Virus record (IMG/VR): IMGVR_UViG_3300050336_000035
Coordinates: 64,001 to 128,000 of that record
DNA length: 64,000 nucleotides
Direction: 5' to 3' (one strand)
Source of the DNA: a virus
Lineage: Duplodnaviria > Caudoviricetes
Below, one piece after another: positions 920-59,593 of the stretch. Each line of letters starts with the position of its first letter. Position 1 is the first letter of the stretch. The notes under the pieces are model-generated. The model had not been told where the DNA came from. It saw nothing but the letters and a program-made list of their open reading frames with translations, and did not search any database. Both the position numbers and the translations under genes were made by a program.

Positions 920-1068
920 AAAGGGAAATTAATCAATGCAGATTTAAATGGAGCGTATCAGATAATAAAGAAAGTAATACCAAATGCTTTTGCTGATGGT
1001 ATAGAGGGTGCAGGTTTACATCCGATTAGAGTTAATTTAATCTAATAAATCACTTTGTAAAAAAGTGA
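920..1068 (+). pseudogene. tnpB: 3' remnant of a canonical IS200/IS605-type tnpB plus terminal hairpin (omega-RNA region)
   Basis: 920-1045 translates KGKLINADLNGAYQIIKKVIPNAFADGIEGAGLHPIRVNLI*, a typical TnpB RuvC-III C-terminus, with no start codon. It is followed by a TCACTTT...AAAGTGA hairpin and bounded by junction sites at 898 and 1069. Confidence 0.8.
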
Positions 1069-2219
1069 ATGAATCAGCGATTTGATGATATATAAGAAAG
1101 GAGAAGCTTATGGAAAACAGCAATAACATTGAATTATCTTTAGAAGACATATTTTGGATTGGCAAAGGTTTAGCTAATACTATAAAGGTATTAGAATTAG
1201 AAAATGAATATACTAACCTTATAAAAGAAATTCAAAATATTCAAAATAAATTATGTTCTTTTATTTACAGAGAAGATGCTAAGATTAATGATAGAGTAAT
1301 TATGCAATTGATAAAATAGACAATTTAAGTGATTTAAGGAGGTAATGTTATGTATATTGATAATAGAGGTATTCATTTTGAAGAAAATGATGAAAAAGAA
1401 AAGATCAATTATGGAGTTGGTTATAGTGATGGTTATAAAGCAGCATTAAAAGTTATGCAAATACATTTAGAAGATTTGTCCAACAGAATGATATTAAAAG
1501 AAGATTGATGATAGAATGTAGATTTTGTAATATAAGGAGTAAAAATGAATATTAATTATTTAAAAAGAATACGAGAAAAATATCAACAATTACAAGATAA
1601 ATTCTTTGACGAAGATGATTTTGATTGTGCTGGATTTATGGTTGGAGAACTTGAAAAAATTGATAAACTAATCAATGAAAAAGAGGAGTTTAATATTAAA
1701 TCTTTTCTATATAAAATTTACACAAACAATAATAAAGAAGTTATGTGGATTGAGTCTACTGCACCAAAAGACAAATTTAAATCATTGTTACAAGCTTATT
1801 TTATGACCACAAAAATTAATGGAAAAATTGGAATTGGATTTGGAGAAGTAATAGAAAGTAGTGGATATAAATCTGAGTTATTATTTGAAGGGATAGATAA
1901 TATTCCTAATGATTATCAAGTTATATATTTAAGTGATATTAATATTTTTGATATTTAATAGAGGGAGTACACATATGAAATATATAGAAGTTAGTCAAAA
2001 TAAGTATAGGAATTTTATACTTAATAGTGATTTAAATATATATGGCGTTTCTAATGGAATTGTTGAAGTTACATATATAAAACCCAATGATTGTTTAGCT
2101 TTTAGATTTCAAAAGGGAAATCAAAAGTGTTATATTAGAGAAGATTATATTTATCTTTGTGAATAAATATATCTTTTATAGCAAGCATTGTTTTTAGGAT
2201 ATTAATATAATTTATTATA

Positions 2220-2248: not shown

Positions 2249-4941
2249 AAAATTGCATCAAAGGAATAAGCTTTTTAAATATATAAAAAAGTGAGGACTA
2301 AATATGGATAATATAATACAGTTTAAAGATTTTGAAAGACCTGTAAAACGAAATGAAGATGAATGTAGAGAGTACTGGCAAGAACAATACGAAAGAAGAA
2401 AAGAAAGTCGATTACATATACATGCGGAAGAAATAGAGAGTAAAGTAATAAATAATGAAAATGTTGTTAATATAGTAGGAAAACTATTAAAAGTAACATT
2501 TAAAAATATTGAACAGGTTGAGCAATTTGAAAAACAAGAATGTGAAAATCAACCATGTGAAAATTCTTGGATGTCATGTAAGGAGAAATTCAATAAATTT
2601 CCTTGTGTTATTTATTGTAGATTTACAAAAAGAGGTATTCTTGAAGGATATGTGGCTCAATATATAACTAAAGATGAATATATTGCTGAGTTAAAAAATC
2701 AATTATTACAAGCTGTATAGTACTTAATATCTTTGAGTGGTTGAAGCAGTAGACAATGCATAACATTCGGATATTAATATAATATGACTAAATATTAGTT
2801 TTATAATGAAAGGAAGTGATTTTATTGTTAGAAACTATATTTTGTATATCAATTCTTTGGTTTACTCCTAGTTTAATTTTATGGTTGGTTGTTTTTGATT
2901 GGTTTTGGAAACAGGAAGTATTAACTATTGGGCATATTATATTTGCTATATTTACATATCCAATGACAATATTGGCAGTAATAGTCTATTTATTATTCCT
3001 ATTAATAATTGGGTTTATTAAATTATGTAACATAAAAATTAGAATAAGATAAATGATTCATTTGGTCACGAAATAATTTAGAAAGGAGTTTTAAATATGT
3101 GTAAAAAAGTAATGTCAGCTATAATCATTATACTAATAGTTTTAGCTTTAATTGTGATTGGAAGTGTGTTATTACCAACCAATTTAAAAATGTTAAATAC
3201 CTTATTAGGATTTATATATGGATTTCTTGCAATGAAAATTTATTTGAGTATTAATAACATATAAAAAAAATACATAAAACATCCATTTTATAAAATAAAA
3301 AAATATAAAGGAGAATAATACATATGAGTGAATTTCTTACTAAAAGTGAAAACGATGAATTAATAAAGAGAATTGAAGAAGGAGATATTTTACTAGCTAA
3401 AATTACTGATGCTTATAATGAAGCTGCTAAAGATTATAATAAAGCATCTTCCGAAAGAGAATCAATGAAGGTTGTTATTAGACATTTATTAGGATGGGCT
3501 GAAGAAGAAGGTCTAAATATTCCATATGAAAAATGGGATGAGGTTATTGACAAAGCACACGATAACGATGGTTTCTTTACAGCAATGTTAGAATGGTTCG
3601 TAGACCATATGAATGATTTTGGTGAAAACTATGGTGTTGAATTTGAAGATTAAACATGATGAATAATCAATTTTATGATGTTATAAGAAAGGAGTTTATA
3701 TGATTTATATAATTTTAGGTTATATAGTATCAATTGTTTTATCATTTTTGATTTTACGTTATGCTTTTATTAATATGGAAAAATACGCTAAAGAATCAGC
3801 ACCTATACCAATAATAATTTTTATGATGTTAATTCCAATAATAAATATATTTTTTGGATTAGCAATTGTGAATGCCTTTGTAGAAAAAGATTGTTCTGAT
3901 ATTATTAATAAAATATTTAGGATAAAAAGTTGATTTCATAATAATATAATATTAAATAAGGAGATTTTAGAAGATGAAGTTTGAAGATGTTAAAATAGGA
4001 ATGAAAGTAGTTCCTTTTAAGAAAACACAAGGACAGGTAAAATTAGAAGAATCTATGGAACAAGCAAATAAAATTAAGCAGAAATATCTCTTTATGTATC
4101 ATGTATAGATAATAATGAAAGAAAAATCGGATTATGGCATGAAAAATATTGTTCTTGTAGAGATTGGTTCGATGCATCAGATTTTAACTTATACATAGAA
4201 AACGAAAAGAATGTAAATGTAGAACAATACATATTTGAATCTATGCCATTTATAATCAATTTTAAAGTTACTGATAAAAATAATAAAATTACATATCAAA
4301 CAGTTAATACGGAGCACTTAAAATATAAACTTATCATTAATGGCACAACTACAGTAGTAATTCTTAAAGATGGTTCTAAAGGTGTTTCTAAGTGTTTACC
4401 TACAGACATATATGATAGGGATAAGGGTATAGATATTGCATATAAAAAGGCATTAATTAAATCATATCAAAAGGAATTAAATGATTTAATGAAATAACTG
4501 TTTTAAGTGGTTTTAGATTGGAGGTGTTATTATTTATTATTTTGCAAGTGAACAAAATTTTAATGGAAAAACTTTATACCCTAGAATTCCAGAGCATAGA
4601 ATGCAAAAAGAAGATTTTTCAACAAAGAGAATATGTGTTTCTAAATCAATTAATGGGTGTTTAACGGCAATAGAACCATGTGAAGGAGATTTGTTATATA
4701 TACACTGGTGTGAGTCTAACAATGTTACACAACCATCAATAAACCAAGTTGCTGATGCTCCTTTTACTGGAGAAGAATGGATTTTAGAGCCTGTGGTCAT
4801 GAATGCTTTTATGACAATTAGAATAATAAAGCGTTATTCTAATATGATTAATAATTTATCCAACAATTTATATACATATGAATTAATAGAAGGATAACAT
4901 AATGAAACACTTCATTTATTCAGAATGAAAAGGAAAAACAT

Positions 4942-12876: not shown

Positions 12877-14496
12877 CATGATGAAACAGCTCATTTATCA
12901 TGAGTGGAAAGGATAAAAATGTTAGAAAATATGAACACAGCTAGTCCATTTTTAACAGGTATAATTGAAGGTGAATTTATGACTTATTGTTATCAAGTTA
13001 AATGTGGTAGTAAACCTATAGCATTCACAACTTTAAAAACTAAATATATTGATTTAGCGGTATCTTATGTAAAAGAGAAATACAGTCTTAATACTTATAT
13101 TGAGGAAATAGAAAATTGTCCTGAATGGAAGATTATTTATATATACAAGCATGATTATCTAATAGAAATAATTAAATACTTACCTAAGAATCCTCAAACT
13201 TCTTATGACCATTGGATAATTGGGAAAGCATGTGGATATTCAGATGATGCTATTGGCGAATTTCTTAGTAAAAGAGTTGTAAAATAATATAATAAAAACC
13301 CAATTTGCTTCTGATTTTTGGAAAGGAGAATATTATGACAGCATTAAAATTGTATAAGTTTATTCAAGAAAATGATATAGAGCTTCGTTGGGAAGATGAA
13401 GAATTAATTGCATGGGTTGGATTTCATTGTATTAGTGAATTTACAGACATGATAGGATATGATTATTTATCAGATGGAGGATTAGATGCAAATTTACAAT
13501 ATCATTGTCTTGCTTTAGATATTGTTCCTATATGTGAATACTTTGATATTGAACCTACAGATATATTAGAAAAGGAATAATAAAAACACAATGAAATTCC
13601 ATTTTCATGTGGTTTGAAAGGAGTAATTTAAAACTATGAGATTAATAACAATTGTTGAAAATAAAATAGATATTGGAGATATTTTTATTTTTTCAGATTG
13701 TAATGCATTCATGATTAGTAAATTAGAAGATTTATATTTAGCAACACAATTATTAAATAATGGAAATAGAGAGTTAGGATTTGTTGATTATTCTGACAAG
13801 AATATATATAAATTAAAAGAAAGATTATGTCATGATTACGGAACGCCAAAAAATATAGTTCATATGAAAGATGTGAATTTATCTATATTTTAGATAAAAC
13901 CATTCTTTGGTTGTAATATAGGAGACTTAATAAAGAAATTTAAGGAGAAATTGTTATGGGAATGTATACAGGAATTAGATTTAAGGGATATGTTAAACCT
14001 CAATTTAGAGAAGATTTTGAAGGAATAGCATTAAGCGGTGATTGGAATGAATCTAACGATGAAGTATTTAGAACTTTTGGTCAGATAGGTAGGTCTGGGT
14101 TTATACCATGTGGCGGTTTATCATATATGCCTGATGAATGGGAAGTGTATGATGAATCATTAAAGGGTTCATATGATTATTATCGGTTAGCAAAGGCTAC
14201 CGATGGTTTTGAAAGAACTTGGAACAAAGATACAGGTTATTGGACTTTTCAATGTAGCTTAAAGAATTATGAAGATGAAATTGAAGAATGGTTCAAAATC
14301 GTTCCATATTTTATTGATAAGATAGAGCATCTAGAATATTTCTATGAAGAATGGACGTATAGCCAACAATATGATTTAGTTGATGGAAAAATCGAATTAA
14401 TAAATGATAGATTTAGAAAATACGGATATGAAGATTAATATTAACATAAATCTTATCTTTTATGCACTTTTAATATTATTATAATTTTTAAGGAGA

Positions 14497-15312
14497 GTGA
14501 TTACTATTTCGAAAATAGTAAATGATAAATATTATACTTCGCCAGAATTGGCAGAATACATAGTTAATAAAACAAAAGAAGTAATAGGTGTAGAAAACAT
14601 TTCAGAATATTTAGAATCATCAGCAGGGGCAGGAGTGTTTTTAGATTATCTTGATAAACCTTACATAGCTTATGATATTGAGCCTGAAGATGATAGAATT
14701 ATTAAACAAGATTTTCTTAGTCTAAATTTAGATTACAAAAAGAATAGATGCATTATAGGAAATCCACCTTATGGAGAAAAGAATGTTTTATCAGTTCAAT
14801 TCTTTAAAAAAGCTTTAGAGTTAGGTGACTATATAGTATTTATACTTCCTATTAGTCAATATAAAAATAATTATCAAATGTTTGAATTTGATATGATTTA
14901 TAGTGAAGACTTAGGATTACAACATTATACCGATAGAGATTTACAATGTTGCTTGAATATCTATAAAAGACCTAAAAATGGTTTAAATAAGAAACCGAAC
15001 TACAAGCTTAAAGACGTTGAAATAAAAGAAAATAGGCGAACAGGACAACAAATATCCGATATTAAAGATTATGATGTGGGCATTTGTTCTTTTGGAAGTG
15101 GAATTATAGGTAGGCAACCTCAATATCAAGGACAATATGCTAAAGAATTTTATTTTAAAATACATAATGATAACTTGAAAAATAGAATAATTGAATTAAT
15201 ATCAACTACCGACTGGGAATTGGAAGTTTGTAACGGAATAAGTGGTCAGACTAATTTAGCTCAATGGCAAGTATATAAATACATAAAAGAACAAATTCCA
15301 GAAATTCAGTAA
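14497..15312 (+). CDS. SAM-dependent amino-DNA methyltransferase (N6A/N4C), paralog of 58653..59456
   Basis: DKYYT, E.SAG.G.F SAM-binding motif, IGNPPY catalytic motif. Confidence 0.85.
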   Translation: MITISKIVNDKYYTSPELAEYIVNKTKEVIGVENISEYLESSAGAGVFLDYLDKPYIAYDIEPEDDRIIKQDFLSLNLDYKKNRCIIGNPPYGEKNVLSVQFFKKALELGDYIVFILPISQYKNNYQMFEFDMIYSEDLGLQHYTDRDLQCCLNIYKRPKNGLNKKPNYKLKDVEIKENRRTGQQISDIKDYDVGICSFGSGIIGRQPQYQGQYAKEFYFKIHNDNLKNRIIELISTTDWELEVCNGISGQTNLAQWQVYKYIKEQIPEIQ

Positions 15313-15396
15313 GTTTGTCACATAATTATAATATGATAATCGAAGTATACGAGAGATTGTAAGAGTAAACAGAAGTTATAGTTTACCAATTTATGA

Positions 15397-15487
15397 ATGA
15401 AAACGCTGATTCATTCACTTTTTAAAAGTGATTTATGGTATCTGAACTAATGTCCGCTTAACCAACAAGCATATTGAATCAATGCTT
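15397..15487 (-). ncRNA. Putative guide/omega-RNA scaffold, left end of cassette 1 (reads outward)
   Basis: Minus strand: AAGCATTGATTCAATATGCTT-GTTGGTTAAGCG-GACATTAGTTC-AGATACCATAAATCACTTTTAAAAAGTGA-ATGAAT; homologous to three other copies; has its own promoter. Confidence 0.7.
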
Positions 15488-15494
15488 AATTAGA

Positions 15495-15523
15495 ATTATA
15501 ATAGTAATTGTAATAATTGTCAA
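15495..15523 (-). promoter_or_regulatory. Consensus SigA promoter driving the left scaffold RNA
   Basis: Minus strand TTGACA(15523-15518)-17bp-TATAAT(15500-15495); no ORF downstream. Confidence 0.8.
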
Positions 15524-15653
15524 TACTTTTAGTATTTTATCGTTATTAATATAAATTATGTTGACATTGTAGTTCAATTAATGTATACTAATAATTGTAA
15601 GATAACATCTCTTCCCCGTTACTACATAATATTATATAATAGCTTATGGGAGA

Positions 15654-15866
15654 GTGATATATATGGTTAAGAATAGGTTAAAAGAAATATTAGATGACAG
15701 AGGAATTAAACAAAAATGGTTAGCTGAAAAAGCAAATGTTAAAGAAAACACATTATCAGGTATCATAAATAATAAAACCGTAACAAGTGTAGATATAGCA
15801 ATAAGAATTGCAAAAGTTTTAGAAATGCCTGTTGAAGATATATTTCAAGACCAAGATTCATTTTAA
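15654..15866 (+). CDS. Cro/C1-type HTH transcriptional regulator (likely start 15663)
   Basis: NRLKEILDDRGIKQKWLAEK...TLS.I...A.RIAKVL..VEDIF HTH_3 pattern; promoter TTGACA(15561)-17-TATACT. Confidence 0.9.
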   Translation: MIYMVKNRLKEILDDRGIKQKWLAEKANVKENTLSGIINNKTVTSVDIAIRIAKVLEMPVEDIFQDQDSF

Positions 15867-15980
15867 CAGAATTATTATTCATTATTCTGAATTTTTATAT
15901 TGACATATTGAATTTATTCCCTTATAATAAAAATGTAAGTTAAAGGTTGCAACCACACTTACCAAATTTATTATAAGGGA

Positions 15981-16448
15981 GTGTCTAATATGAAATTAGA
16001 AAAATTGAATCAGTTGGGTAAAGAATGTAGTTTAAGGAAATTATCTCAATTCTTAGGTATGAGGGTTGAAGTAAGTATTAATACTCATACTCATAATAAC
16101 AATTTAATGTGTACATATTTCTATGAAAGTTTCGATTTTGATGCAGGTGAATTTATACTATGTCTATTTGATAAGAAAGATGAAACATTAAATACTAGGA
16201 TTAATAATGAATTAATTTTAGAAGTAAAAAATCTAACTGAAGATTTATATGATGATGTAATTCATATCTATACAAATGATTTTATCTTATCCATTACAAC
16301 ATTAGAACAGAAACTTATCCTTCCTAAATGCAATCATTGTGGCAAAGAAATTGAGCATAATGAATACTGGTTATCTGGAGCTTATGGTGATTTGAGATTA
16401 TGCGAAGATTGCTCTTATCCATTATATCCAATCAGTGAAGAAAATTAA
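15981..16448 (+). CDS. Conserved partner protein of the TnpB-like gene, C-terminal Zn ribbon
   Basis: CNHC...CEDC; paralog at 42604 in the same position. Confidence 0.8.
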   Translation: MSNMKLEKLNQLGKECSLRKLSQFLGMRVEVSINTHTHNNNLMCTYFYESFDFDAGEFILCLFDKKDETLNTRINNELILEVKNLTEDLYDDVIHIYTNDFILSITTLEQKLILPKCNHCGKEIEHNEYWLSGAYGDLRLCEDCSYPLYPISEEN

Positions 16449-16475
16449 AAATATGAGTAGAAAGGAGGAGTAATC

Positions 16476-17879
16476 ATGGCTATGGAAATGAGAGCAATCA
16501 AATTTTATTCCAATAATAAAACTACAACTGAAGATTTTAATCGAGGCATTAACTTTTTAACCGAATGCCAAGAAGTTGAAAATAAGCTATTAGAATATTA
16601 CTGGACTAACTTTAATGAAGTTATTAGTGTTAGAACTTGGATTGATTTCTATAGTAAAAGAATTATGATTACTTCTCCTTCTACTAAATTTCAGCATTAT
16701 ATGCAAATACTTCACATGGTTTATATGCAATTAAAAAGTTTAGAAGAAAAAACTAAGCAAAAGGTTCACTTTAAATTTGAAGATAAAATGCAACAACGCA
16801 TTTACAATTACTGTAGTAAGTTTGTTTTTGACTGGGATAGACTTGAAAAGTACATTAATAAACAAGTTAAAGAATATAAAAAGAAAGATAAGAAATATTA
16901 TGATTTCTTAATGGAAGTAAAAAATATAATAGACAATGACTTATACTTCTTAACTTTACAACAAGATATTGAAAATAAGTTTTGGGAGTTAAAAAACAAA
17001 ATAAATCTACCTAGAAAGAAGTCTAAACAAATTTGGGCTACTACGTTTCATACCGTAGATATTGAGAAGTATGAGGGTTATTGGATTTTTGTTATTGATA
17101 CTAATAAGTTTATTACTAAACGTAAAATGGAAAATTTCAGAATAGTAGTAGATATATCAGATTATCATAATAGTATATTAGATAATTATAATTTAAATAA
17201 CACTTTTACTATTAAATTTAATAATTATGATAGATTTGAAATTATTGGTGTATATGAAAAAGAAATTATTTATCCTGAACCTAAACCTACTAAAACAATT
17301 GGTATTGATATTGGCTTAAAGAATTTAATTGTATCTTCCGATGGTGATTATATTGAGCAGAATAAAACAATATTAAAGAAAGCTCAAAAATTAATTAAGA
17401 ATCAAGCAAATAGACAAAGTTTAGAAGCACATATGAAAAAGAAATTAGATAACGAAAATTATACTCTACCTGATAAAAATTATATGAAGAAGCAGAACAA
17501 ACTAAGTAGATTTGTTCAATGTGATAATCGTTATAAAGTTAAACAATTTCTCAAAGGTAAAGAAGATACCCATATCATTATGGAAGACTTACAATTAAAT
17601 GATGCTAAGACTTATAGTAAAGAAGTAAATTATATGCTTAGAAGAATGAAGATTCAAGGGGTTAAAAATGATATTTTAAAGTATACAAAAGAAATGGGTA
17701 TAAAGACAACACAAGTAAATCCAAGATATACAAGTATTGATTGCCCTATCTGTGGAAATAGAGACAAACAAAATAGACAAACACAAGAATTATTTAAATG
17801 TACTAAATGTAGTCATACAGATAATGCAGACCATAATGCTAGTGTTAATATTGAAAATAGATATTTGAAAGCACAATGA
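16476..17879 (+). CDS. tnpB: TnpB/Cas12f-like RNA-guided endonuclease, RuvC triad intact
   Basis: RuvC-I IGIDIG, RuvC-II IMEDL, YTS.DCP.CG...C.KC Zn ribbon, RuvC-III NADHNAS.NI. Confidence 0.88.
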   Translation: MAMEMRAIKFYSNNKTTTEDFNRGINFLTECQEVENKLLEYYWTNFNEVISVRTWIDFYSKRIMITSPSTKFQHYMQILHMVYMQLKSLEEKTKQKVHFKFEDKMQQRIYNYCSKFVFDWDRLEKYINKQVKEYKKKDKKYYDFLMEVKNIIDNDLYFLTLQQDIENKFWELKNKINLPRKKSKQIWATTFHTVDIEKYEGYWIFVIDTNKFITKRKMENFRIVVDISDYHNSILDNYNLNNTFTIKFNNYDRFEIIGVYEKEIIYPEPKPTKTIGIDIGLKNLIVSSDGDYIEQNKTILKKAQKLIKNQANRQSLEAHMKKKLDNENYTLPDKNYMKKQNKLSRFVQCDNRYKVKQFLKGKEDTHIIMEDLQLNDAKTYSKEVNYMLRRMKIQGVKNDILKYTKEMGIKTTQVNPRYTSIDCPICGNRDKQNRQTQELFKCTKCSHTDNADHNASVNIENRYLKAQ

Positions 17880-17888
17880 GGATATGTT

Positions 17889-18086
17889 ATGAATGATGGA
17901 TATTATGAAACAATTGGATTTTTAGGACAAAAATTTACTTGGTATTTTTCAAATGATTCATGTGTTGTAGTTAATGAAGCCACTGAAGAAGAATGCGAGT
18001 TTCCTATTTCAAAAATTAGTATTACAAATGATACAATAAAAATTAAAGGAAGCCATTCTTTTACAATTTTACCTTTGGATAACTAA
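17889..18086 (+). CDS. Hypothetical protein inserted between the nuclease gene and the right scaffold (cassette 1 only)
   Basis: 65-aa ORF with SD GAGGA; absent from cassette 2. Confidence 0.6.
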   Translation: MNDGYYETIGFLGQKFTWYFSNDSCVVVNEATEEECEFPISKISITNDTIKIKGSHSFTILPLDN

Positions 18087-39245: not shown

Positions 39246-40593
39246 TGTTTTGTTAAAATAATTTGAAAGGAGTACATAATGAATAATATTGAATATGCTT
39301 GCCAAAGAATTGGAATAGACGAAAAACAATTAAAAATATTATTTGAATCTATAGTTGGAAATAAATTAGAAATCCCTGAAAAGATATATATATTTCATCA
39401 TTGTAAAACCATTCCAGATATGATTTATGACAGATATAATTGGGAGGTAACTGATGGTAAAGACACTACTTTATACTTAGGAGACTTTGACGGACTTAGT
39501 GATTTTCTATATAGAAATAAACATATAATAAATGATTTTGAAGATATGTCTGATTGGAGCATGAATAAAGTAATTAAAAATATTTTAACTAATACAAATA
39601 AATTTTTAAAAACAACATAAAAGACAAATTTTATAATGTTTAAGAAAGGAGATAAGCAATATGTTTTGGACTAAGAAAAATAAAGTAGAAGTAAACCATA
39701 TAAGAGTATGTGAAGTTAATCAAGGGTTGCCTGAGTGTAATAGTGTTAATAAACTTAGAGAATATCAGCAACAACTCAAAAATATAAAAAATTCTTCATT
39801 AACTGATATCTCTGCAAAATACTTGAATGTTGTTAATGATAGTTATTTAAGAAGTGAGTTATATTGTATTGAAGTTATATTAAATCAATTAATTCGTCGA
39901 ACAGATAATACATATATTAATTTTGAAGAAAGATTTAAAGCTTTCGGAAAAGAAATTGATGACTATATAAAGAAAGATTGTATAATAGATGATTTAATTA
40001 AGAAAATAAAAGTTGAGAAAAACATATTAGGAATTGAATAGAATTCAGTATTTATAGCATTTAAATTGGAGGTTTTTTATGAAAATTTGTAACAACACAA
40101 CAGGAATACGTGATTGTAATGATAAATATTATAAATATGGGTTATGTATTAAGAATAGAAAATGTAAAGATTCTTTATTTGTAAATGAAAATGTTATTAA
40201 ACAATTGATAATTGAAAAATGTGAATATAATAAAATATTTGCTGATTGTATAGATAATCTTATTTATGAAGCAAAAACAATATGAAATGCCGTTTTTATT
40301 TTACATGAAAGGAATGAAGTTTTTATGGAAGGATTTGTTATTGATATAAATAAATTTAATCCAACACCTGATTATCAAGATTTTAAAAAAATAGATGAAA
40401 CTATAAATTATTTATTAATAAAAAGAATACCATTTGTTACAACTCAAGATATAATAGTTTTTCATGAAGATATTTACTTGAAATATAAAGATAATATAAA
40501 TTATTGTGTTAATGAATTACAAAATGAATTTTTAACAGAAACAATTAAAAAAATATAAAGCATATAAAATGCGTTTCATCAAAAGGAGAAAAC

Positions 40594-40916: not shown

Positions 40917-41666
40917 ATGTGTTTTTATTTAAAAAGGAGAAAAGAGGATATAATGATAAAAGTAGGAATTACTGAACGTGGAGATGCAGGATTAGATTTC
41001 TCATGGGTAAACAAATTACTTGATGTAAACATTATTATTACTAAGAATTTAAATGATATAATAATTCAACATCTTATTGATAATAAAAATAAAATAATAT
41101 TACATATGACTTGTACTGGACTTGGAGCAACAAAAGTAGAACCTAATGTTCCCAATGTGAAATTTACTCACAATCAAATATTAAAACTAATTGATAGTGG
41201 ATTTCCTGTAAATCAAATTGTTTTAAGAGTAGACCCTATTATACCATTACAAATTACATTAGAGCAAAGGGTTAAAAAAGTATTAGATTTATTTAAAGAT
41301 ACAGGAATTAAGAGGGTTAGATATTCATTTTTAGATATGTATCCGCATGTAAAAGAAAGATTAACAAAAGCAGGATTGAATTTACCATATAATACATTTT
41401 GTTGTCCAAATTATATGAAAGAAGATGCTTTAAAGTTGTTAAAAGAATATGAAAATATTTATGAATTTGAAGCATGTGCTGAAAACACCTTTCATCAATT
41501 AGGATGCATTTCACAAAAGGATTTTGATATTTTAGGGATTGAAGAAAAAGCAATACCATCAGGATATCAAAGAAAAGGCTGTTTGTGTATAGCTGGTAAA
41601 ACTGAATTGTTGACCAATAAAAAGAAATGTCCTCATGGATGTTTGTATTGTTACTGGAAAGGATAA
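40917..41666 (+). CDS. DUF1848-like radical-SAM/SPL-related protein (likely start 40953)
   Basis: TKN, EPNVP, R.DPI and C-terminal CPHGCLYCY. Confidence 0.7.
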   Translation: MCFYLKRRKEDIMIKVGITERGDAGLDFSWVNKLLDVNIIITKNLNDIIIQHLIDNKNKIILHMTCTGLGATKVEPNVPNVKFTHNQILKLIDSGFPVNQIVLRVDPIIPLQITLEQRVKKVLDLFKDTGIKRVRYSFLDMYPHVKERLTKAGLNLPYNTFCCPNYMKEDALKLLKEYENIYEFEACAENTFHQLGCISQKDFDILGIEEKAIPSGYQRKGCLCIAGKTELLTNKKKCPHGCLYCYWKG

Positions 41667-42002
41667 TGTAATAAAATTGGGATTCTACGCTAAAAAGAGA
41701 GGATGAAATAATATGAGTGAAATAAGTATTGGAGAAGAAAATTATAACTATTTTACAAATGGAAGATATAAAGCAAATAATTCTCCAAAAGCAAAAAGTA
41801 TTAAAAAGAAATTAGAAGATAATGGTCATACTAATGTTTTTGTATGGTATGAAAAGCTAGGTAAAGCAATGGAAATGTGTGGTTGTAGTGGAGGATATAT
41901 GTATACTTCTGACCAAAGTCCAATAGAACCTATAGGATATTCCTTTGATGAGGCAATGATAACAATAGAGAAAAAATGGCATAAGATATCAAAATAATTG
42001 TG

Positions 42003-42093
42003 ATAAATTCTCAGATTCATTCACTTTTTAAAAGTGATTTGTGGTATCTGAACTAACGTCCGCTTAACCAACAAGCATATTGAATCAATGCTT
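42003..42093 (-). ncRNA. Putative guide/omega-RNA scaffold, left end of cassette 2
   Basis: Two substitutions relative to the cassette-1 left scaffold; minus-strand promoter TTGACA(42129-42124)-17-TATACT(42106-42101). Confidence 0.7.
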
Positions 42094-42271
42094 AGTTATA
42101 AGTATAAGGAATATTGTGGCAAATGTCAATAAGTTTTACTAATACTTAATTAATATTAAAATAATATCTATTGACAATACCGTTTAATTAATATATACTA
42201 ATAATTGTAAAAGCAACATCTCTTCCGAACCATTACATAATAATGTATAATTAATATGGGAGAGTGATGAT

Positions 42272-42433
42272 ATGCCAAAGTTTAAAAATAATCATATTGG
42301 ATTTAATGTAAGTGATAAATTAAAGAAAAAGACAGAAGAAGTTTCTAAAGAACATGAAATGAGTTTAGCTGATTTTATGAGATACATTTTACAAAAATAT
42401 ATAGATGAATACGAAATCAAGAAAAACAAGTAG
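42272..42433 (+). CDS. Ribbon-helix-helix (CopG-like) regulator (not in ORF track)
   Basis: MPKFKNNHIGFNVSDKLKKKTEEVSKEHEMSLADFMRYILQKYIDEYEIKKNK; promoter TTGACA(42171)-17-TATACT. Confidence 0.75.
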   Translation: MPKFKNNHIGFNVSDKLKKKTEEVSKEHEMSLADFMRYILQKYIDEYEIKKNK

Positions 42434-42603
42434 ATATTAAGAGCAATAATATTCTAGTTTAGCTTATTCGGTTTATATTAAGATATTTAACCTGTTTTAA
42501 TATCGTTAGTAATTTGATATTTAGTAATTATTCCCTTATAATAAAAATGTAAGTTAAAGGTTGCAACCACACTTACCTAAATTATTATAAGGGAGTGTAG
42601 ATT

Positions 42604-43047
42604 ATGGTTAAAATGGATTATGAAAGAAAGTGTGAGTTAAAAAAATTACAACAGTTTCAAGGACACAGAGTTGAAGTTAGTTTTAACACTCATACACATG
42701 ATAACAATGTGATGGTTACATTTGTTTATAACAACTTTGATTTTGATAACGGCGAATACATATTGTGTCTTTTTGATTCAAAGGATGAAACATTGAATGC
42801 TAGACTTGAGAAGAATCTTATAACAACTGTAACAAACATTGATGAAGATATATATCATGATGTTGTACATATTTATACTAATAATTTTATACTCAGCATA
42901 ACAACTCTTGAAGAACCCATACGCCTACCTAGATGTAATCATTGTGGAAATGAAATTGAATATAATGAATATTGGCTTGATGGTGCTTATGGTAGGTTAA
43001 GACTTTGCGAAGATTGTTGTTTGGATTTGTATCCTGATAACGAATAG
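42604..43047 (+). CDS. Conserved partner protein of the TnpB-like gene, C-terminal Zn ribbon
   Basis: Paralog of 15981..16448. Confidence 0.8.
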   Translation: MVKMDYERKCELKKLQQFQGHRVEVSFNTHTHDNNVMVTFVYNNFDFDNGEYILCLFDSKDETLNARLEKNLITTVTNIDEDIYHDVVHIYTNNFILSITTLEEPIRLPRCNHCGNEIEYNEYWLDGAYGRLRLCEDCCLDLYPDNE

Positions 43048-43074
43048 AAAATTAAATAGAAAGGAGGAGTAATC

Positions 43075-44478
43075 ATGGCTACTGAAATGAGAGCAATTAA
43101 ATTCTATTCTAATAATAAAACAACAACTGAAGATTTCAATAAAGGTATTAACTTTCTATCTGAATGCCAAGAAGTTGAAAATGAATTGTTAGAGTATTAT
43201 TGGACTAACTTTACTGAAGTTATTAGAGCGAAATCACAACTTGTTTTTTATAAGAATAGAGTCATGATTACTTCTCCTGCTACAAAATTTCAACACTATC
43301 AACAAATTTTATTTATGGTATTTAGAACACTTAAAAGTTTAGAAGAAAGAATTACTCAAAAAATACATTTTAAATTTGATGATAAAATGAAACAAAGAAT
43401 ATATAACTATTGTAGTAAATTCGTTTTTGATTGGGATAAACTTGAAACATATGTATCTAAACAAATTAAACAGTATAAAAAGAAAGACAAAAAGTATTAT
43501 GACTTCTTAATAGAAGTTCAAAAAATTATTGATAATGAACAGGCTTTTTTAAAACTAAAACAAGATATAGAAAATAAGTTTTGGGATTTAAAAAATAAAA
43601 TTAATCAACCTGTTAAGAAATCTAAGCAAATATGGGCTACAACTTTTCATACTGTAGATATCGAAAAGTATAATGATTATTGGGTATTTGTGATTGACAC
43701 CAATAAATTTTTAAGTCCTCGCAATATGGATAAGTTTAAAATAGTTGTAAGTATTTCTGATTATCACAGAGATATTCTTAATTCCAATACACTTCAAAAT
43801 ACTTTTTCTATTAAGTTAAATGATTATGGTAGAATCGAAATTTTTGGAGCATATGAAATTGATATAAATTATCCAACACCTAATCCTGTTGATACTATTG
43901 GCATAGATATAGGTTTGAAGAAACTTATTACATCATCTGATGGTGAATTTATTGAACAGAATAAAAACATTGTAAAGAAAGCTCAAAAGTTAATTAAGAA
44001 TCAAGCTAATAGACAGAGTTTGGAAGCTCATATGAAAAAGAAATTAGAAGATGAGAATTTTACTTTACCTGATAAAAATTATATGAAGAAACAAAACAAA
44101 TTAAGTAGATTTGTTCAATGTGATAATAGGTATAAAGTTAAACAATTTCTCAAAGGTAGGGAAGATACTCATATCATTATGGAAGATTTGCATTTAAATG
44201 ATGCCAAGACATATAGTAAAGAAGTAAATTATATGTTAAGAAGGATGAAGATACAAGGCATTAAAAATGACATTCTAAAATACACAAAAGAGATGGGCAT
44301 CAAGACTACACAAGTAAATCCTAGATATACGAGTATTGAGTGTCCTATATGTGGCTGTATTGATAAAAAAAATAGACAGACACAAGAAACATTTAAATGT
44401 GTTAAATGTAGTCATACAGATAATGCAGACCACAATGCTAGTATTAATATTGAAAATAAATATTTAAAGGCACAATAA
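43075..44478 (+). CDS. tnpB: TnpB/Cas12f-like RNA-guided endonuclease, RuvC triad intact
   Basis: IGIDIG, IMEDL, CP.CG..C.KC, NADHNAS.NI; 467 aa like copy 1. Confidence 0.88.
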   Translation: MATEMRAIKFYSNNKTTTEDFNKGINFLSECQEVENELLEYYWTNFTEVIRAKSQLVFYKNRVMITSPATKFQHYQQILFMVFRTLKSLEERITQKIHFKFDDKMKQRIYNYCSKFVFDWDKLETYVSKQIKQYKKKDKKYYDFLIEVQKIIDNEQAFLKLKQDIENKFWDLKNKINQPVKKSKQIWATTFHTVDIEKYNDYWVFVIDTNKFLSPRNMDKFKIVVSISDYHRDILNSNTLQNTFSIKLNDYGRIEIFGAYEIDINYPTPNPVDTIGIDIGLKKLITSSDGEFIEQNKNIVKKAQKLIKNQANRQSLEAHMKKKLEDENFTLPDKNYMKKQNKLSRFVQCDNRYKVKQFLKGREDTHIIMEDLHLNDAKTYSKEVNYMLRRMKIQGIKNDILKYTKEMGIKTTQVNPRYTSIECPICGCIDKKNRQTQETFKCVKCSHTDNADHNASINIENKYLKAQ

Positions 44479-44486
44479 TAAATATA

Positions 44487-44573
44487 AGGCTTTAATTTAA
44501 CGCCTATAGTTAAGCGTACATTAGTACAGATACTATAAATCGCTTTTAAAAGTGAATGAATTGTAGGATTTAT
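44487..44573 (+). ncRNA. Putative guide/omega-RNA scaffold, right end of cassette 2
   Basis: AGGC..GCCT-ATAGTTAAGCG-TACATTAGTAC-AGATACTATAAATCGCTTTTAAAAGTGA-ATGAAT. Confidence 0.7.
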
Positions 44574-44598
44574 ATGCTTATTATATAAAATATAAAGT

Positions 44599-45177
44599 GT
44601 GGTGATAATAATAGCAAAAACAGAAATGACATTAAATCTAGAAAAAGAATTGTATTCAAGTACAAACAAAATGGGCGTGTTTGGTTGTTTTGAAGTTACT
44701 ATAGGTTGGTATGGCAAAGAACGTGTTGATTATATTACATATGATACTAAAGGGGTTTGGCGTTGTTATGAAATAAAAGTGTCTAAAGCAGACTTTCATA
44801 GTAAGGCAAAGAAAACATTTGTTGGACATTTTAATTATTATGTTATGCCAAGAGAATTATATGAGGAAGTTAAAGACGAAATACCGAAACATATAGGTGT
44901 ACATATTGGTAGTGGTTGTATAAAGAATGCAAAGAGACAAGAATTATCTGTTGATGAGAAAATATTAAAAGATTCTTTAATACGTTCATTGTGTCGAGAT
45001 GCAGAAAAAATTTATACTTCAGAAAATGTTAATTATATTAATAGACTTAAAAAACAAATATCAAATCTTGAAAAAGAAAGTAAAGAATGGAGAAAAGACT
45101 ACTACGATTTATATAAAAAAGTTAGAGAATTGTATGGTAGAGATTGGGATAAGGATTTGATTAATTTTGATGAGTAG
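44599..45177 (+). CDS. MmcB-like PD-(D/E)xK nuclease
   Basis: E...RVD......YEIKVSKADF...NYYV.P. Confidence 0.7.
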   Translation: MVIIIAKTEMTLNLEKELYSSTNKMGVFGCFEVTIGWYGKERVDYITYDTKGVWRCYEIKVSKADFHSKAKKTFVGHFNYYVMPRELYEEVKDEIPKHIGVHIGSGCIKNAKRQELSVDEKILKDSLIRSLCRDAEKIYTSENVNYINRLKKQISNLEKESKEWRKDYYDLYKKVRELYGRDWDKDLINFDE

Positions 45178-46648
45178 GACTATAATTATGAATAGAAAAA
45201 CACTAATAAACATACTCAATAATTATGATGGAATTGTAGCAAAAGAAGTATCTAAAGAAGAATATGATAATTTAATCATAGAAGATACTATACCCGTTTT
45301 AGATGATATCAAAGGTATAATAATTAAGAAATCTTATTATCCAGATTATGAAGGTTGTAAGTGGTTGATTACATACAAGATATTGGCTGAAATAAAAGTA
45401 AAGAGTTTATAAAATCGGGGTTCTGTTGTGTTTTTAGATATTAAAATAATATTTGACAATTCTCAAACTTGATATTATAATTATCTTGAGGTGATAAAAT
45501 TCATCAACTTAAAGAGAGGAAAAAATATGTTTAAAAAACTTAAAGAATGGATTTTAAATAAAATACTCAAAAGAGACTATACAATGACTTATGTTATGGG
45601 TGTAGATATTTATGGTACAGAATATGGCTATAAGAAAGAAGGATATAGAGATAAAAGTGGTCAAATTCACATTAGTAAAGTTACACTCTTTGAATAAATC
45701 AGCAATTCTATGATAAATAAAGGAGAATTTTTATGATTAATTGTAATGCAGAATGTAAATATGAGTGTAATGGAGAATGTATTTTACATCCAGACAAAAT
45801 AAAACTTGTAATAAGAAAATATAGTGATGATTTTAAAAAACAATATTTAGAATGTGATTCTCAAATTCTTGAAGATAGAGACATGGGAATTAGATAAAAT
45901 CAAACTTCTATGATGATTGGAGAAAAAACATGAATGATATAATAATAAGTTTACTTAAAGAAAAGATAGATTATTATTCTCATAATGCTAAATTGTTATA
46001 TGATGATTATAAATATTACTGTTATGTTAAGGCTTTACGTCAGGAACTATACAGCACATTAAAAATTAGAAATGAATTCAAAAGAGCATTAAAAGAATAT
46101 AAGAAACTATTACATAATGTACAGATAGAAAAGTATAAAAAAGCAATAAAAGAATATAGAGAACATCCAGACAAATATGCAGAAGATATTTTGGGAGTAA
46201 AGCTATATCCATATCAAAAAGAAATATTAAAATATTTTTATAAAGCAAGATAGAAAACTTAATTCATCACAAATTGAAAGGAAAACAAAATGAATAATAA
46301 TTTACCTTGCGAAGATAATGATTGTGCATATTATAAAATGGATTACCAAGATAGAACTTATTGTAGTAAGAAAAATAGATTCATAGATAATGAAACAGGT
46401 GAATGCGAATATTTTACGCCTTCTCAAACTTGTGATTTGTGCAAACATTCTTATATGAAAGTCTATGAAACTGGTTCTATAGATGATATTGAATATTATT
46501 GTAAATTACAAAATGGGAAATTAATATATGATGATTTAAGTCCTTATATGATAAATTTTGCAGATTTTCCTAAATGTAATATAAACAAATTTGAAAAGAA
46601 GGACTGAATCAATTCACCATTTTAATCACTTTTAGAAAGGAGGTAATT

Positions 46649-47086
46649 ATGTCTGAGGAAAGTTTAAAACTTAGTAAAACAAGAAAAGAATATTGTGAAT
46701 ACATATATTATAGAATACTAAATAAATTAAAAGAAGCCAATGAACATCAATTACTAGCTTTTGCTATGTTAGGTATGCATTTATGCTTAAGACAATCTGA
46801 TATTCTTAAATTAAAATGGGAACAAATTGATTTTGAAAATATGAAAATAAACAATGTGCATCTTCTTAAAGGTGGTTACATTGGCTCTCTTGATTTAGAA
46901 ATTAGATTGGTTAGTGCTTTAAAGAAATGGTATGAAAATACTGATGACAAAACAATGATATTTCCTAAATTAAAAAGATATGAAACAGGAAATAAAATTG
47001 GTGAGTTAATAGGAGATACAACATTTAATAATCACGATTTAAGAAGTATTGGTTTATGTTTAAAATTGCAAGGGGTTATATATTAG
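46649..47086 (+). CDS. Truncated tyrosine recombinase catalytic-domain protein
   Basis: LCLRQSDILKLKWEQID (box I Arg) and HDLR; ends about 14 aa later without the canonical H/W...Y segment; no core-binding domain. Confidence 0.75.
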   Translation: MSEESLKLSKTRKEYCEYIYYRILNKLKEANEHQLLAFAMLGMHLCLRQSDILKLKWEQIDFENMKINNVHLLKGGYIGSLDLEIRLVSALKKWYENTDDKTMIFPKLKRYETGNKIGELIGDTTFNNHDLRSIGLCLKLQGVIY

Positions 47087-47315
47087 CATGAAAATATCTT
47101 TTATTTAAAAAAGAGGAGTAATATAAAAATGTTAAATGTTGATAAAAATATAATTAATTTTATAAATAGTGATGAATATAAGTGGTATAAAGATGGTACA
47201 AAAAATGGAATTTGGATTGGATTATTTTTAGGGTTTTGGCTTGGAATGTTAATGATGACTATATTAGTTATAATAGGATTCTTTAAATAAAACTACTCTT
47301 CTAAACACATTTTTA

Positions 47316-57249: not shown

Positions 57250-58652
57250 GGAAGACAAGTACTGTATTTTGTCATAAACGAGGTGATTAAATGAACCAAA
57301 ATTTTAACTTTGTATTTTGTAAGCATCATGGAGATTTTGAATATTGCTACAAACAATGTAAAAAGGATTGTCCTTCTGTAAGTAATTTATGGCATAAATT
57401 TATAAGAAATCCTATAGTAAATTTAATTACGGCAATAAGATACAAATTTCAGAAATGTAACCAATTACCTACACAATGTAGTTTTCTTTATAAGAATAAA
57501 TATTGTTTGTTTCAAGATAGAAATTGTTATTCAAACAGAACTAAAAAGTGATTAAAAGACTCATTCTATTATAAGTAGAAAGGAAATTAATAATGGAATT
57601 TTATAAAATATATTGTACTTGTTTTACTACATTCTTTTTAATTGCAATGTTATTAAACATTCCAATAGAAGTAAAACAAATAAATCCAAAGCGTGGTGCA
57701 TTTTTTATGAAGAAATAATTAACACAAAAAGCTTGTTTTATTGTAAAGGAGTTACTAAATGAAATACATAATATTTTTCAACACTAATCCTTATATGGAT
57801 ATACACAGTTTGGAATGGAATTAAAATTGGAATATATAGTGGAAGTTTTAATTTTGAGATTGAAGCATATCCAATAAAAAGATTTTTTAAGAAGAAATAA
57901 TATAATATATAGCCGTATCCTAGCCCTCAAATATATATCAAATGTACAAATGGTGGTTAGAAAATCTGTGAGAGCTAGGAACACTTCATATTTTGAACGA
58001 AAGGTAGGAAATTATACATATGCAAACATATAAAATGAATTGTATTCGCTGTAATAAAGAAATGAGTTATATTCCAGATTCTGTGCTTGAAGCTAGAGGA
58101 TATGTAGTTATGTATTGTGAAAATTGTAAACAGGAATTTTTAGTACCAGATAGCAATGAAGATTTACATATAATAAATGAGTGAAGAACAAGAAAGGAAA
58201 TTATTTTATGGAATATATTAAAAGATTAACCGAGCAGCAACAAAAAGTTTTTGATGTAATGTTACATATGGCAAGAGTAAGACAGAGTTATTTATTATCT
58301 TCAGAAGATAGGGGTATAGGTAAATCAATTACTCTTAATGAATTAGCCTTTACATTACAGACTATAGGGTATGATGTGTATTTATTAAATCCTCATCCTG
58401 TTAAAGATTACTATGTTAATAATATAATTGCTCTTGATAGCAAATCTTATGAGGGACTATTTAGGGAAAATTCTGTTGTTATAGCAGATGAATCAAGATA
58501 CGAAATGATGGATGATATTTTAGAGTATTGTAAATACAAAAAAGTACCTATTGTTGGATATGTCAATTTTGAAACTAGCCTATAGCAAGGGTTTTAAGAC
58601 TCAAAAAGTGAATGAAAAACACATTTTATTGTTAATATAAATTTAAAAGGAT

Positions 58653-59456
58653 GTGATTACTATATCAAAAATTGTAAATGACAAATATTACACATCACCA
58701 GAATTAGCAGAATACATAGTTAATAAAACTAAAAAAATTATAGGTGAAGAAAAAATTACTGAATATATAGAACCATCAGCAGGTGGAGGAGCATTTCTTG
58801 ATTATCTTGATAAATCATTTTTAGCATATGATATTGAACCTGAAGATAATAGAATTCTTAAACAAGACTTTCTTAGCTTGGACTTAGATTATAAAAAAGG
58901 TAGATGTATTATTGGAAATCCACCTTATGGAGAATTTAATCTTTTGTCTGAAAAGTTTTTTAAAAAATCTATAAAAATTTGTGATTATATTTCATTTATT
59001 CAACCTATTAGTCAATATAAAAATAATATAAAGCTATATGAATTTGACTTAATATATAGTGAAGATTTAGGAAAACAAATATATACTGATAGGGAAATTC
59101 ATTGTTGTTTAAATATTTATAGAAGACCTATAAATGGAGAAGTAAATAAAAAACAAAACTATAAATTAAAAGATGTATCAATCACGAGATTAGATAGAGG
59201 AAGTAAAACAATTATTAATGAATATGATATTAATATTTGTTCTTATGGTGCATCAATAGGAAAAATACCTAAATTTATAGGACAATACAGTCAAGAACTT
59301 TATATAAAAATATGTAATGAAAAATATAGAAACCAAATAATAAATTTAATTATTAATACTAATTGGAAACAAATAATTGATATGACTGCAACACCAAAAC
59401 TTCAAATATGGAGAGTATATAAATACATAAAAGAACAAATTCCAGAAATTCAATAA
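58653..59456 (+). CDS. Amino-DNA methyltransferase, paralog of 14497..15312
   Basis: EPSAG.G.F and IGNPPY motifs. Confidence 0.85.
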   Translation: MITISKIVNDKYYTSPELAEYIVNKTKKIIGEEKITEYIEPSAGGGAFLDYLDKSFLAYDIEPEDNRILKQDFLSLDLDYKKGRCIIGNPPYGEFNLLSEKFFKKSIKICDYISFIQPISQYKNNIKLYEFDLIYSEDLGKQIYTDREIHCCLNIYRRPINGEVNKKQNYKLKDVSITRLDRGSKTIINEYDINICSYGASIGKIPKFIGQYSQELYIKICNEKYRNQIINLIINTNWKQIIDMTATPKLQIWRVYKYIKEQIPEIQ

Positions 59457-59593
59457 ATTGTAACAGTATTGTAATATGCAATTCAAAGTAAATAAAAGTA
59501 TGAGTGAGTATATGGAAGTTGTAAGTTACTAAAAACATGATAAAATCAGGATTTGGTTGTAAAAATAAAATTTAATTTATAGGAGGATAAAAT

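Follow-up and report, generated by a model that had tools for sequence, protein, structure and literature searches.

Inverted, structured RNA-like ends flank a TnpB-like nuclease cassette without a transposase in an SPbeta-like phage: a candidate homing element

TnpB elements, whose nuclease is the ancestor of Cas12, are understood as passengers of IS200/IS605 transposons that carry one guide RNA at the right end. The IS200/IS605 family is defined as devoid of terminal inverted repeats, and non-restorative homing by TnpB has been described (PMC13565253). Here we analyze a 2.57-kb cassette (cassette 2, positions 42003-44573) delimited by open reading frame (ORF) listing and by comparison of the window with itself, the window being the whole 64,000-nt stretch that corresponds to bases 64001-128000 of the complete 167,493-bp virus record IMGVR_UViG_3300050336_000035, which has direct terminal repeats. 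The phage is AT-rich, SPbeta-like and complete (~167 kb). From left to right the cassette contains a junction dyad, an outward-reading scaffold, divergent promoters, genes for a 53-aa ribbon-helix-helix (RHH)-type regulator, a 147-aa zinc-ribbon protein and a 467-aa TnpB-like nuclease, a second scaffold and a second dyad, and its ends are mutual inverted copies (42003-42068 with 44573-44509, 85%, BLASTN). The locus belongs to the known TnpB/omega-RNA kind; what is new in it are the inverted duplicated scaffolds, the lack of a transposase, the phage host and the internal regulator module, and a literature search retrieved no dual-scaffold TnpB element. With moderate confidence, we interpret it as a homing element of the TnpB/omega-RNA type that lacks a transposase and takes two guides from its flanks.

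With the TnpB of IS200/IS605 elements (ISDra2, ISFba1, and the TnpB-only IS1341-type) the cassette shares a nuclease with WED, REC, RuvC and TNB domains and a D-E-D triad, a structured non-coding element placed directly 3' of tnpB and ending at the element border, and a presumed flank-derived guide and homing role. However, it differs from them in several respects. No match to Y1 TnpA (PF01797) was found in the complete 167-kb phage and the cassette contains no such ORF; its ends are ~90-bp terminal inverted repeats, whereas the two ends of IS200/IS605 members are unlike each other, with hairpins on one strand; it has a second, inverted scaffold with its own promoter and holds a repressor gene and a zinc-ribbon gene. 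In addition, its scaffold is short (~80 nt) and lies outside the coding region, and the N-terminal half of the nuclease matches no known TnpB family in sequence. CRISPR-Cas12f (type V-F; 8j12, 8dzj, 7c7l) agrees with it in fold and belongs to one size class with it (Foldseek E 1e-16 to 1e-13, TM ~0.5), but the cassette differs in that it lacks adaptation genes and its guide would be set by the insertion site instead of being acquired; no CRISPR array was detected, the self-comparison of the window showing only the inverted ends and the paralogous cassettes.

The 467-aa protein matches Cas12f1-like_TNB (PF07282, E 3e-15, above the cut-off) and OrfB_IS605 in Pfam, both in its C-terminal half only, and its N-terminal 210 residues had no match among annotated phages. 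Residues D278, E370 and D452 are invariant in 36 homologues and in all three copies that the phage carries, and the zinc-ribbon cysteines C423, C426, C442 and C445 are likewise invariant in the 36 homologues. In the AlphaFold model (pLDDT 91) a strand (2-12) is followed by helices (18-175), a beta domain (185-264) and then RuvC and the zinc ribbon; the top Foldseek match was AsCas12f (8j12, E 1.5e-16), and other Cas12f proteins, ISFba1 TnpB, Cas-lambda and ISDra2 TnpB were also recovered (TnpB 8iaz, 8h1j). Based on sequence and modelled structure, the protein has the RuvC fold with D-E-D and the TNB zinc ribbon that define a TnpB, and it is predicted to be active in cleavage. Full-length relatives form ~64 clusters in metagenomes (42-80% identity), and all of those looked at sit in phage-like contigs.

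The end element was analyzed in an alignment of the six ends of this genome and eleven ends from relatives. RNAalifold predicted four helices in the ~80-nt element, with 95% of the cells paired vs 78% in shuffles; compensatory changes were observed in 13 of 17 pairs, none of 500 shuffles reached the observed values and the signal collapsed in slid controls. Moreover, on the outward strand G:U pairs (10) prevail over A:C pairs (1), a bias that holds for left and right ends separately. Altogether, the end element appears to be a structured RNA-like module, its RNA nature being suggested by this bias and by the position of promoters. An outward promoter is present in all six left ends (consensus score 10-12 of 12), with the -10 box ending 81-86 nt from the scaffold end, whereas right scaffolds show at best a weak promoter at that distance (3 of 9; in cassette 2 a weak promoter-like site at 44450-44479). 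As known for TnpB, the right scaffold RNAs may derive from the tnpB transcript. A search of Rfam with region 41500-45000 gave no match at E up to 1.

Across the whole genome, a covariance model of the scaffold picked out six full copies, a single relic and nothing else. In the relatives it detected either one scaffold, always just 3' of tnpB (L010, L011, L012, L014, L125, and L269; loci used for comparison are given as L numbers), or two (L007, L008, and L009), so that a scaffold follows tnpB in every relative examined down to ~50% protein identity (L007-L014, L125, and L269); it gave no match in the more distant L271 and L273. A loose scaffold pattern run against IMG/VR returned 115 loci, one of them real (L125). 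The inverted left scaffold was found in 6 of 6 three-gene cassettes and only there. Since single-scaffold relatives keep the copy just 3' of tnpB, as expected for an omega-RNA, comparison of these loci indicates that the right scaffold is the ancestral partner of tnpB and that the left copy is part of a derived left module. Left and right scaffolds differ consistently at one P1 pair (A-U vs G-C) and constitute separately conserved lineages. In cassette 3 the two hairpin-1 sequences differ and both still pair, which suggests that one protein would have to read structure at hairpin 1 and sequence in those single-stranded stretches that are conserved. A 65-aa ORF of cassette 1, absent from cassette 2, lies between tnpB and the right end, and thus the scaffold is self-contained and independent of the 3' coding region of tnpB; this ORF (17889-18086, plus strand) had no family match and was found in cassette 1 only. 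The relic, a truncated scaffold 3' end at 1043-1086 (plus strand) with hairpin 1 and an ATGAAT-cagcga-TTTGAT dyad (covariance model E 1e-3), sits just ahead of a gene starting at 1111 and suggests a lost or decayed cassette.

A preliminary description of this locus, made from the sequence, had noted that the same layout recurs 26 kb away with different flanks. This was borne out: in the BLASTN comparison of the window with itself, 15408-15662 of cassette 1 aligned with 42014-42273 of cassette 2 (81%) and 15914-17877 with 42528-44476 (79%), and the flanks are unrelated. A third cassette, at genome positions 44859-47313, lies beyond the window and brings the phage total to three. As first described, the RuvC half of the nuclease copies is nearly identical and N-terminal segments have diverged (85-100% in residues ~281-467; 55-75% in 41-100, 141-160, and 201-280). 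Synonymous divergence (dS) is ~1.1 between all pairs, with a nonsynonymous to synonymous ratio (omega) of 0.09-0.13, and synonymous changes are evenly distributed along the copies; therefore the near-identity of the RuvC half reflects purifying selection, and recent gene conversion was rejected as its cause. The variable segments initially pointed out (residues ~50-85 and ~210-270; analyzed here as 41-100 and 201-270) correspond to REC and WED; they displayed omega values of 0.15-0.27 with no sign of positive selection, and the paralogs differ mostly where the whole family varies. The proposal that N-terminal divergence may alter the target-adjacent motif (TAM) is thus not supported, as these segments are under purifying selection and the differences fall at family-variable positions.

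Judging from these comparisons, the three copies are old, all under purifying selection and kept functional. They are as distant from one another as from those of other phages. In the tree the dual-ended cassettes group in a single clade (support 99/98) whose interior is star-like, and cassette 1 pairs with the copy of another phage (L007, 85%, vs 79% to cassette 2). The identical gene order 26 kb apart could be taken for a simple segmental duplication within the genome; the likelihood of this is negligible given the dS of ~1.1 in all pairs, the flanks unrelated from the dyad spacer outward, the regulator replaced in cassette 2 and the closer affinity of cassette 1 to the copy of another phage, and the cassettes are regarded as separately maintained lineages. 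A DNA methyltransferase gene upstream of cassette 1 (14465-15335) has a paralogue 44 kb downstream (58620-59478, ~80% DNA identity), and the similarity between them fades ~10 nt short of the left dyad of cassette 1.

That one genome keeps three old copies under strong purifying selection, each with its own repressor and promoters, could also mean that the cassettes have been domesticated, TnpB with fixed guides serving phage regulation or the cutting of host or rival DNA and the cassettes no longer spreading. We give this little credence: the catalytic triad is intact and invariant, unlike that of the nuclease-dead TldR-type repressors, the copies occupy non-homologous loci, occur in several phages and branch in a star-like tree, and the relic end indicates turnover.

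The borders of the cassettes are formed by dyads. The spacers TCTCAG (left) and TGTAGG (right) of cassette 2 were read as reported, in the dyads at 42003-42020 and 44556-44573; each end fits the pattern ATRAAW-N6-WTTYAT, the inner arm being the last 6 nt of the scaffold, and the pattern is present at both ends of all six dual-ended cassettes. The claim that homology stops at the junction sites held when the six ends of the three genome copies were aligned: similarity starts at ATTYATTCA, outside of which there is a variable hexamer followed by a conserved outer ATRAAW, and the flanks are unrelated. The homology between cassettes 1 and 2 begins and ends within the 6-nt spacers. With such edges, and with occurrences at three unrelated loci here and in at least three other phage contigs, the cassette behaves as a discrete site-bounded mobile unit, as had been proposed. 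The hexamers had additionally been taken for guides; they are the spacers of dyads and would make up no more than the initial 6 nt of flank-derived guides. The outer arms, read before as ATRAAA in cassette 1 and ATAAAT in cassette 2, differ within the usual A/T choice at that position of the arm, 74% A/26% T genome-wide; in an outward-reading guide the outer arm would fall at guide positions 7-12, away from the TAM position.

The dyads are not private to the cassettes, as 51 exact ATRAAW-N6-WTTYAT sites occur in the genome vs 4-12 in shuffles, and 29 of the 51 are located at the stop codon of a plus-strand ORF vs ~3 expected for random positions. Directly upstream of cassette 2, dyads at 39617, 40282, and 40911 are interspersed with the genes, and the loci of most relatives contain more exact dyads than their own shuffles. 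A clear exception is L014, in which the scaffold is kept, the dyad is degenerate and the 9-kb locus is not enriched in dyads. The dyads at window positions 14446, 15397, and 18178 have the same three spacers (cttatc, acgctg, and aacgtg), in the same order, as those at 2297, 2912, and 5480 of L010, while the proteins between them and the flanking DNA are unrelated in the two phages; dyad spacers may act as conserved addresses. Between two loci encoding the same distant TnpB (L271 5081-5098 vs L272 4714-5056), a 307-bp insertion difference with an 84-aa ORF was observed ~30 nt beyond the right end, bounded by a ~16-bp direct repeat, ATAATTAATTAAA; it represents the gain or loss of a small gene cassette at a palindromic site that is repeated.

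In being repeated and intergenic, such sites recall the SPBRE operators that are associated with MrpR in SPbeta-like phages. MrpR of SPbeta binds the repeated SPBRE element and, reportedly, no longer acts as a recombinase (PMC10516654). In the present phage an MrpR-type protein was identified above the Pfam cut-off; it has a tyrosine-recombinase fold and was the only candidate found for a cognate recombinase of the dyads. About 2 kb downstream of cassette 2, a 145-aa ORF (46649-47086, plus strand) contains an HDLRS stretch that by eye recalls the HxxR box of tyrosine recombinases. The dyads also resemble pdif and integron modules in their inverted arms around variable 6-nt centers, but differ from them in that the spacers at the two ends of a cassette are unequal and hence do not provide an identical crossover spacer. 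A six-base target-site duplication was rejected as well, since the spacers at the two ends differ.

From these observations it could be argued that the cassette moves like other accessory genes, by site-specific or spacer-identity-aided recombination between junction dyads in an integron- or pdif-like manner, TnpB and its RNA being cargo, e.g., an anti-competitor or anti-plasmid weapon. The homology ending within the spacers, the dyads being 4-12 times over-represented and placed at ORF stops here and enriched in the loci of relatives, the same-order dyads shared with L010 around unrelated genes and the MrpR-type protein, with SPBRE binding by its SPbeta counterpart, all speak for it. We nevertheless consider it somewhat unlikely, as left and right spacers differ in every cassette, a pattern not expected from conservative recombination with one partner site, SPbeta MrpR has reportedly lost its recombinase activity, L014 retains a scaffold in a locus with a degenerate dyad and no enrichment, and the second scaffold with its dedicated outward promoter is left unexplained.

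In the homing model that we favor, the core unit would be tnpB with a ~80-nt structured scaffold ending at the cassette border, and transcripts running past the border into the flank would yield a flank-derived guide. In the dual-ended subclade a left module would have been added, consisting of an inverted scaffold with a strong outward promoter, a small repressor gene (RHH in cassette 2, helix-turn-helix, HTH, elsewhere) and a zinc-ribbon gene, the repressor presumably setting how strongly the operon and the outward RNA are expressed. Carrying both guide RNAs, right and left, TnpB would cut both borders of the matching cassette-free locus in a co-infecting related phage, and recombinational repair from the cassette-bearing genome would copy the cassette in, as in non-restorative homing or marker exclusion. 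Because the borders are the gene-junction dyads of the phage itself, the first 12 nt of each putative guide would be the dyad spacer plus a half-site. This scheme resembles that of the free-standing homing endonucleases of T-even phages (Seg, Mob), whose genes are also wedged between phage genes and are considered to propagate when the rival allele is cleaved in a co-infected cell and neighbouring DNA is co-converted; it differs from it in that recognition would be RNA-guided and two-sided and the unit has discrete borders.

Several points weigh against this model. No cassette-free allele was found, which leaves borders, guides and TAM unanchored: megablast of the locus against INPHARED phages gave none, nor did the IMG/VR loci encoding the right-flank protein (best 62% protein identity, with DNA similarity confined to the coding region), and exact-pattern scans for the flank junctions and for full dyads with the spacers of cassette 2 gave only chance matches devoid of dyad context or flanking genes. 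Covariation is unable to separate RNA from single-stranded DNA hairpins, and a ~80-nt scaffold is short beside the characterized omega-RNAs. Furthermore, the inner arm ATRAAT that precedes each putative guide resembles the other arm, ATRAAW, and a TAM identical to the dyad arm would risk self-cutting. Finally, borders placed exactly in dyad spacers are not predicted by gene conversion alone, and site-based exchange fits them at least as well. Homing and dyad-based exchange are, however, not mutually exclusive. A further reading, which we regard as unlikely, is a TnpB lineage adapted to the junction dyads of SPbeta-like phages, in which a half-site would act as TAM and the guide would begin with the spacer and the half-site next to it, so that two outward guides would cut both borders of a junction-bounded slot in a rival and replace the gene there.

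That the HTH gene of cassette 1 is replaced by an RHH-type gene behind a homologous promoter and leader, as reported in the preliminary description, was confirmed by sequence comparison: 15663-15913 and 42274-42527 are non-homologous, the regulator of cassette 1 is an HTH_3 protein (Pfam E 2e-10), and the RHH assignment in cassette 2 relies on weak PHROG matches over residues 6-52 (Arc-like, E 3e-4; CopG-like, E 4e-4), with no Pfam match at E below 0.1. Homology between the cassettes resumes at 42528, which places the -35 box of the second promoter in the swapped segment, and the regulator probably moved together with its operator. The leader folds weakly (42206-42271, -13.9 kcal/mol, z -1.8) and may be a translational control hairpin. 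It also occurs at 15596-15653 in cassette 1 and at ~4620-4660 and ~4960-5000 in L274, where the pairing stretch is CCUCC; in related phages the leader precedes a variety of small genes.

The family of the 147-aa protein is rare, with 39 representatives in a set of 1.8 billion proteins, and has two subtypes of ~23% identity beside nearly identical cassette ends. The AlphaFold model of the 147-aa protein (pLDDT 90.5) had no Foldseek match at E 1e-3 or better, and a VIA-align Z of 8.6 to YojF (1njh) denotes generic PH-like/YojF similarity only. Its identification as an HUH transposase was rejected, the H-T-H-T-H stretch not being conserved in the second subtype and no Y1_Tnp match being found. 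Pairs of a regulator and a zinc-ribbon protein also occur without TnpB or scaffold, with HTH in L006 (1429-2313; orphan pair at genome 139218-139622, minus strand) and L222 and with RHH in L274, and hence the pair resembles an independent module that was taken up into the space separating the left scaffold from tnpB. The RHH protein of L274 is 83% identical to that of cassette 2 and adjoins a zinc-ribbon-family protein that shares only the zinc-ribbon domain (hhalign probability 98.8%); by this comparison the RHH protein is a natural alternative regulator for zinc-ribbon-type genes.

These data bear on another possibility, namely that a transposase acting in trans, encoded by the phage, the host or an unrecognized gene such as that of the zinc-ribbon protein, uses the 90-bp terminal inverted repeats as its DNA sites, and that TnpB only safeguards the element. 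Terminal inverted repeats are a hallmark of cut-and-paste elements, and the zinc-ribbon protein, without known function, is present in every dual-ended cassette. Still, this is very unlikely: the cassette ends show no target-site duplication, Pfam and PHROG scans of the cassette revealed no transposase domain, the sole copy retained by single-ended relatives is the one 3' of tnpB, the zinc-ribbon family occurs apart from TnpB and scaffold and diverges strongly beside nearly identical ends, and both the outward promoter at its fixed distance and the strand bias of G:U pairs speak for RNA. The features of cassette 2 are compiled in Table 1.

Table 1. Features of cassette 2 and its borders (window positions).
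Feature	Position	Strand	Basis
Left junction dyad ATAAAT-TCTCAG-ATTCAT	42003..42020		Outer arm in flank, inner arm in cassette; aligned with all other cassette ends; member of the genome-wide dyad set
Left omega-RNA-like scaffold	42015..42094	-	Outward-read, four helices, inverted copy of right scaffold; nhmmer E 9e-24; covariance model 105 bits
Putative left guide, ~20 nt of flank after the left scaffold	41995..42014	-	TnpB biology and outward promoter position; presumed length
Outward promoter TTGACA-17-TATACT, placed to drive the left scaffold	42101..42129	-	Predicted from sequence
Regulator gene promoter TTGACA-17-TATACT, divergent from the outward promoter	42171..42199	+	Homologous to cassette 1 promoter 15561-15589
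Conserved leader, CUCUUCC able to pair with GGGAGAG ribosome-binding site	42206..42271	+	Kept in cassette 1, cassette 2, L007, and L274
53-aa ribbon-helix-helix-type regulator	42272..42433	+	Weak PHROG matches; stands where other cassettes have an HTH regulator
Second promoter TTGATA-17-TATAAT, ahead of zinc-ribbon gene and tnpB	42514..42542	+	-35 box inside swapped segment
147-aa protein, PH-like/YojF-like beta-sandwich and C-terminal CxxC...CxxC zinc ribbon	42604..43047	+	AlphaFold model
467-aa TnpB-like RNA-guided nuclease; WED, REC, RuvC, and TNB domains	43075..44478	+	Pfam, catalytic residues, AlphaFold, Foldseek
Right omega-RNA-like scaffold	44486..44561	+	Starts 8 nt past tnpB stop codon; minimum-free-energy fold gives same helices as consensus
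Right junction dyad ATGAAT-TGTAGG-ATTTAT	44556..44573		Sequence; aligned with other ends
Putative right guide, ~20 nt past the scaffold	44562..44581	+	Guide position in characterized TnpB omega-RNAs (PMC10055086, PMC13565253); presumed length

The cassettes point to a TnpB lineage that has no transposase, is borne by phages, carries its own repressor and a zinc-ribbon partner, and in which the guide scaffold has been duplicated so that both borders would be targetable. If confirmed, this would constitute a natural case of dual-guide RNA-directed homing between viruses, and the compact nuclease-RNA pair (467 aa, ~80-nt scaffold) may be of interest for genome editing. Cassettes 1, 2, and 3 represent natural variants for mapping protein/RNA specificity, with two regulator types, two zinc-ribbon types and different hairpins read by one protein. 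A link is also drawn between the cassette and the junction dyads by which SPbeta-like phages have their accessory genome divided up; if the reading of dyad half-sites as TAM were true, it would represent RNA-guided, two-sided gene replacement on a natural landing-pad array, tuned by an exchangeable repressor module.

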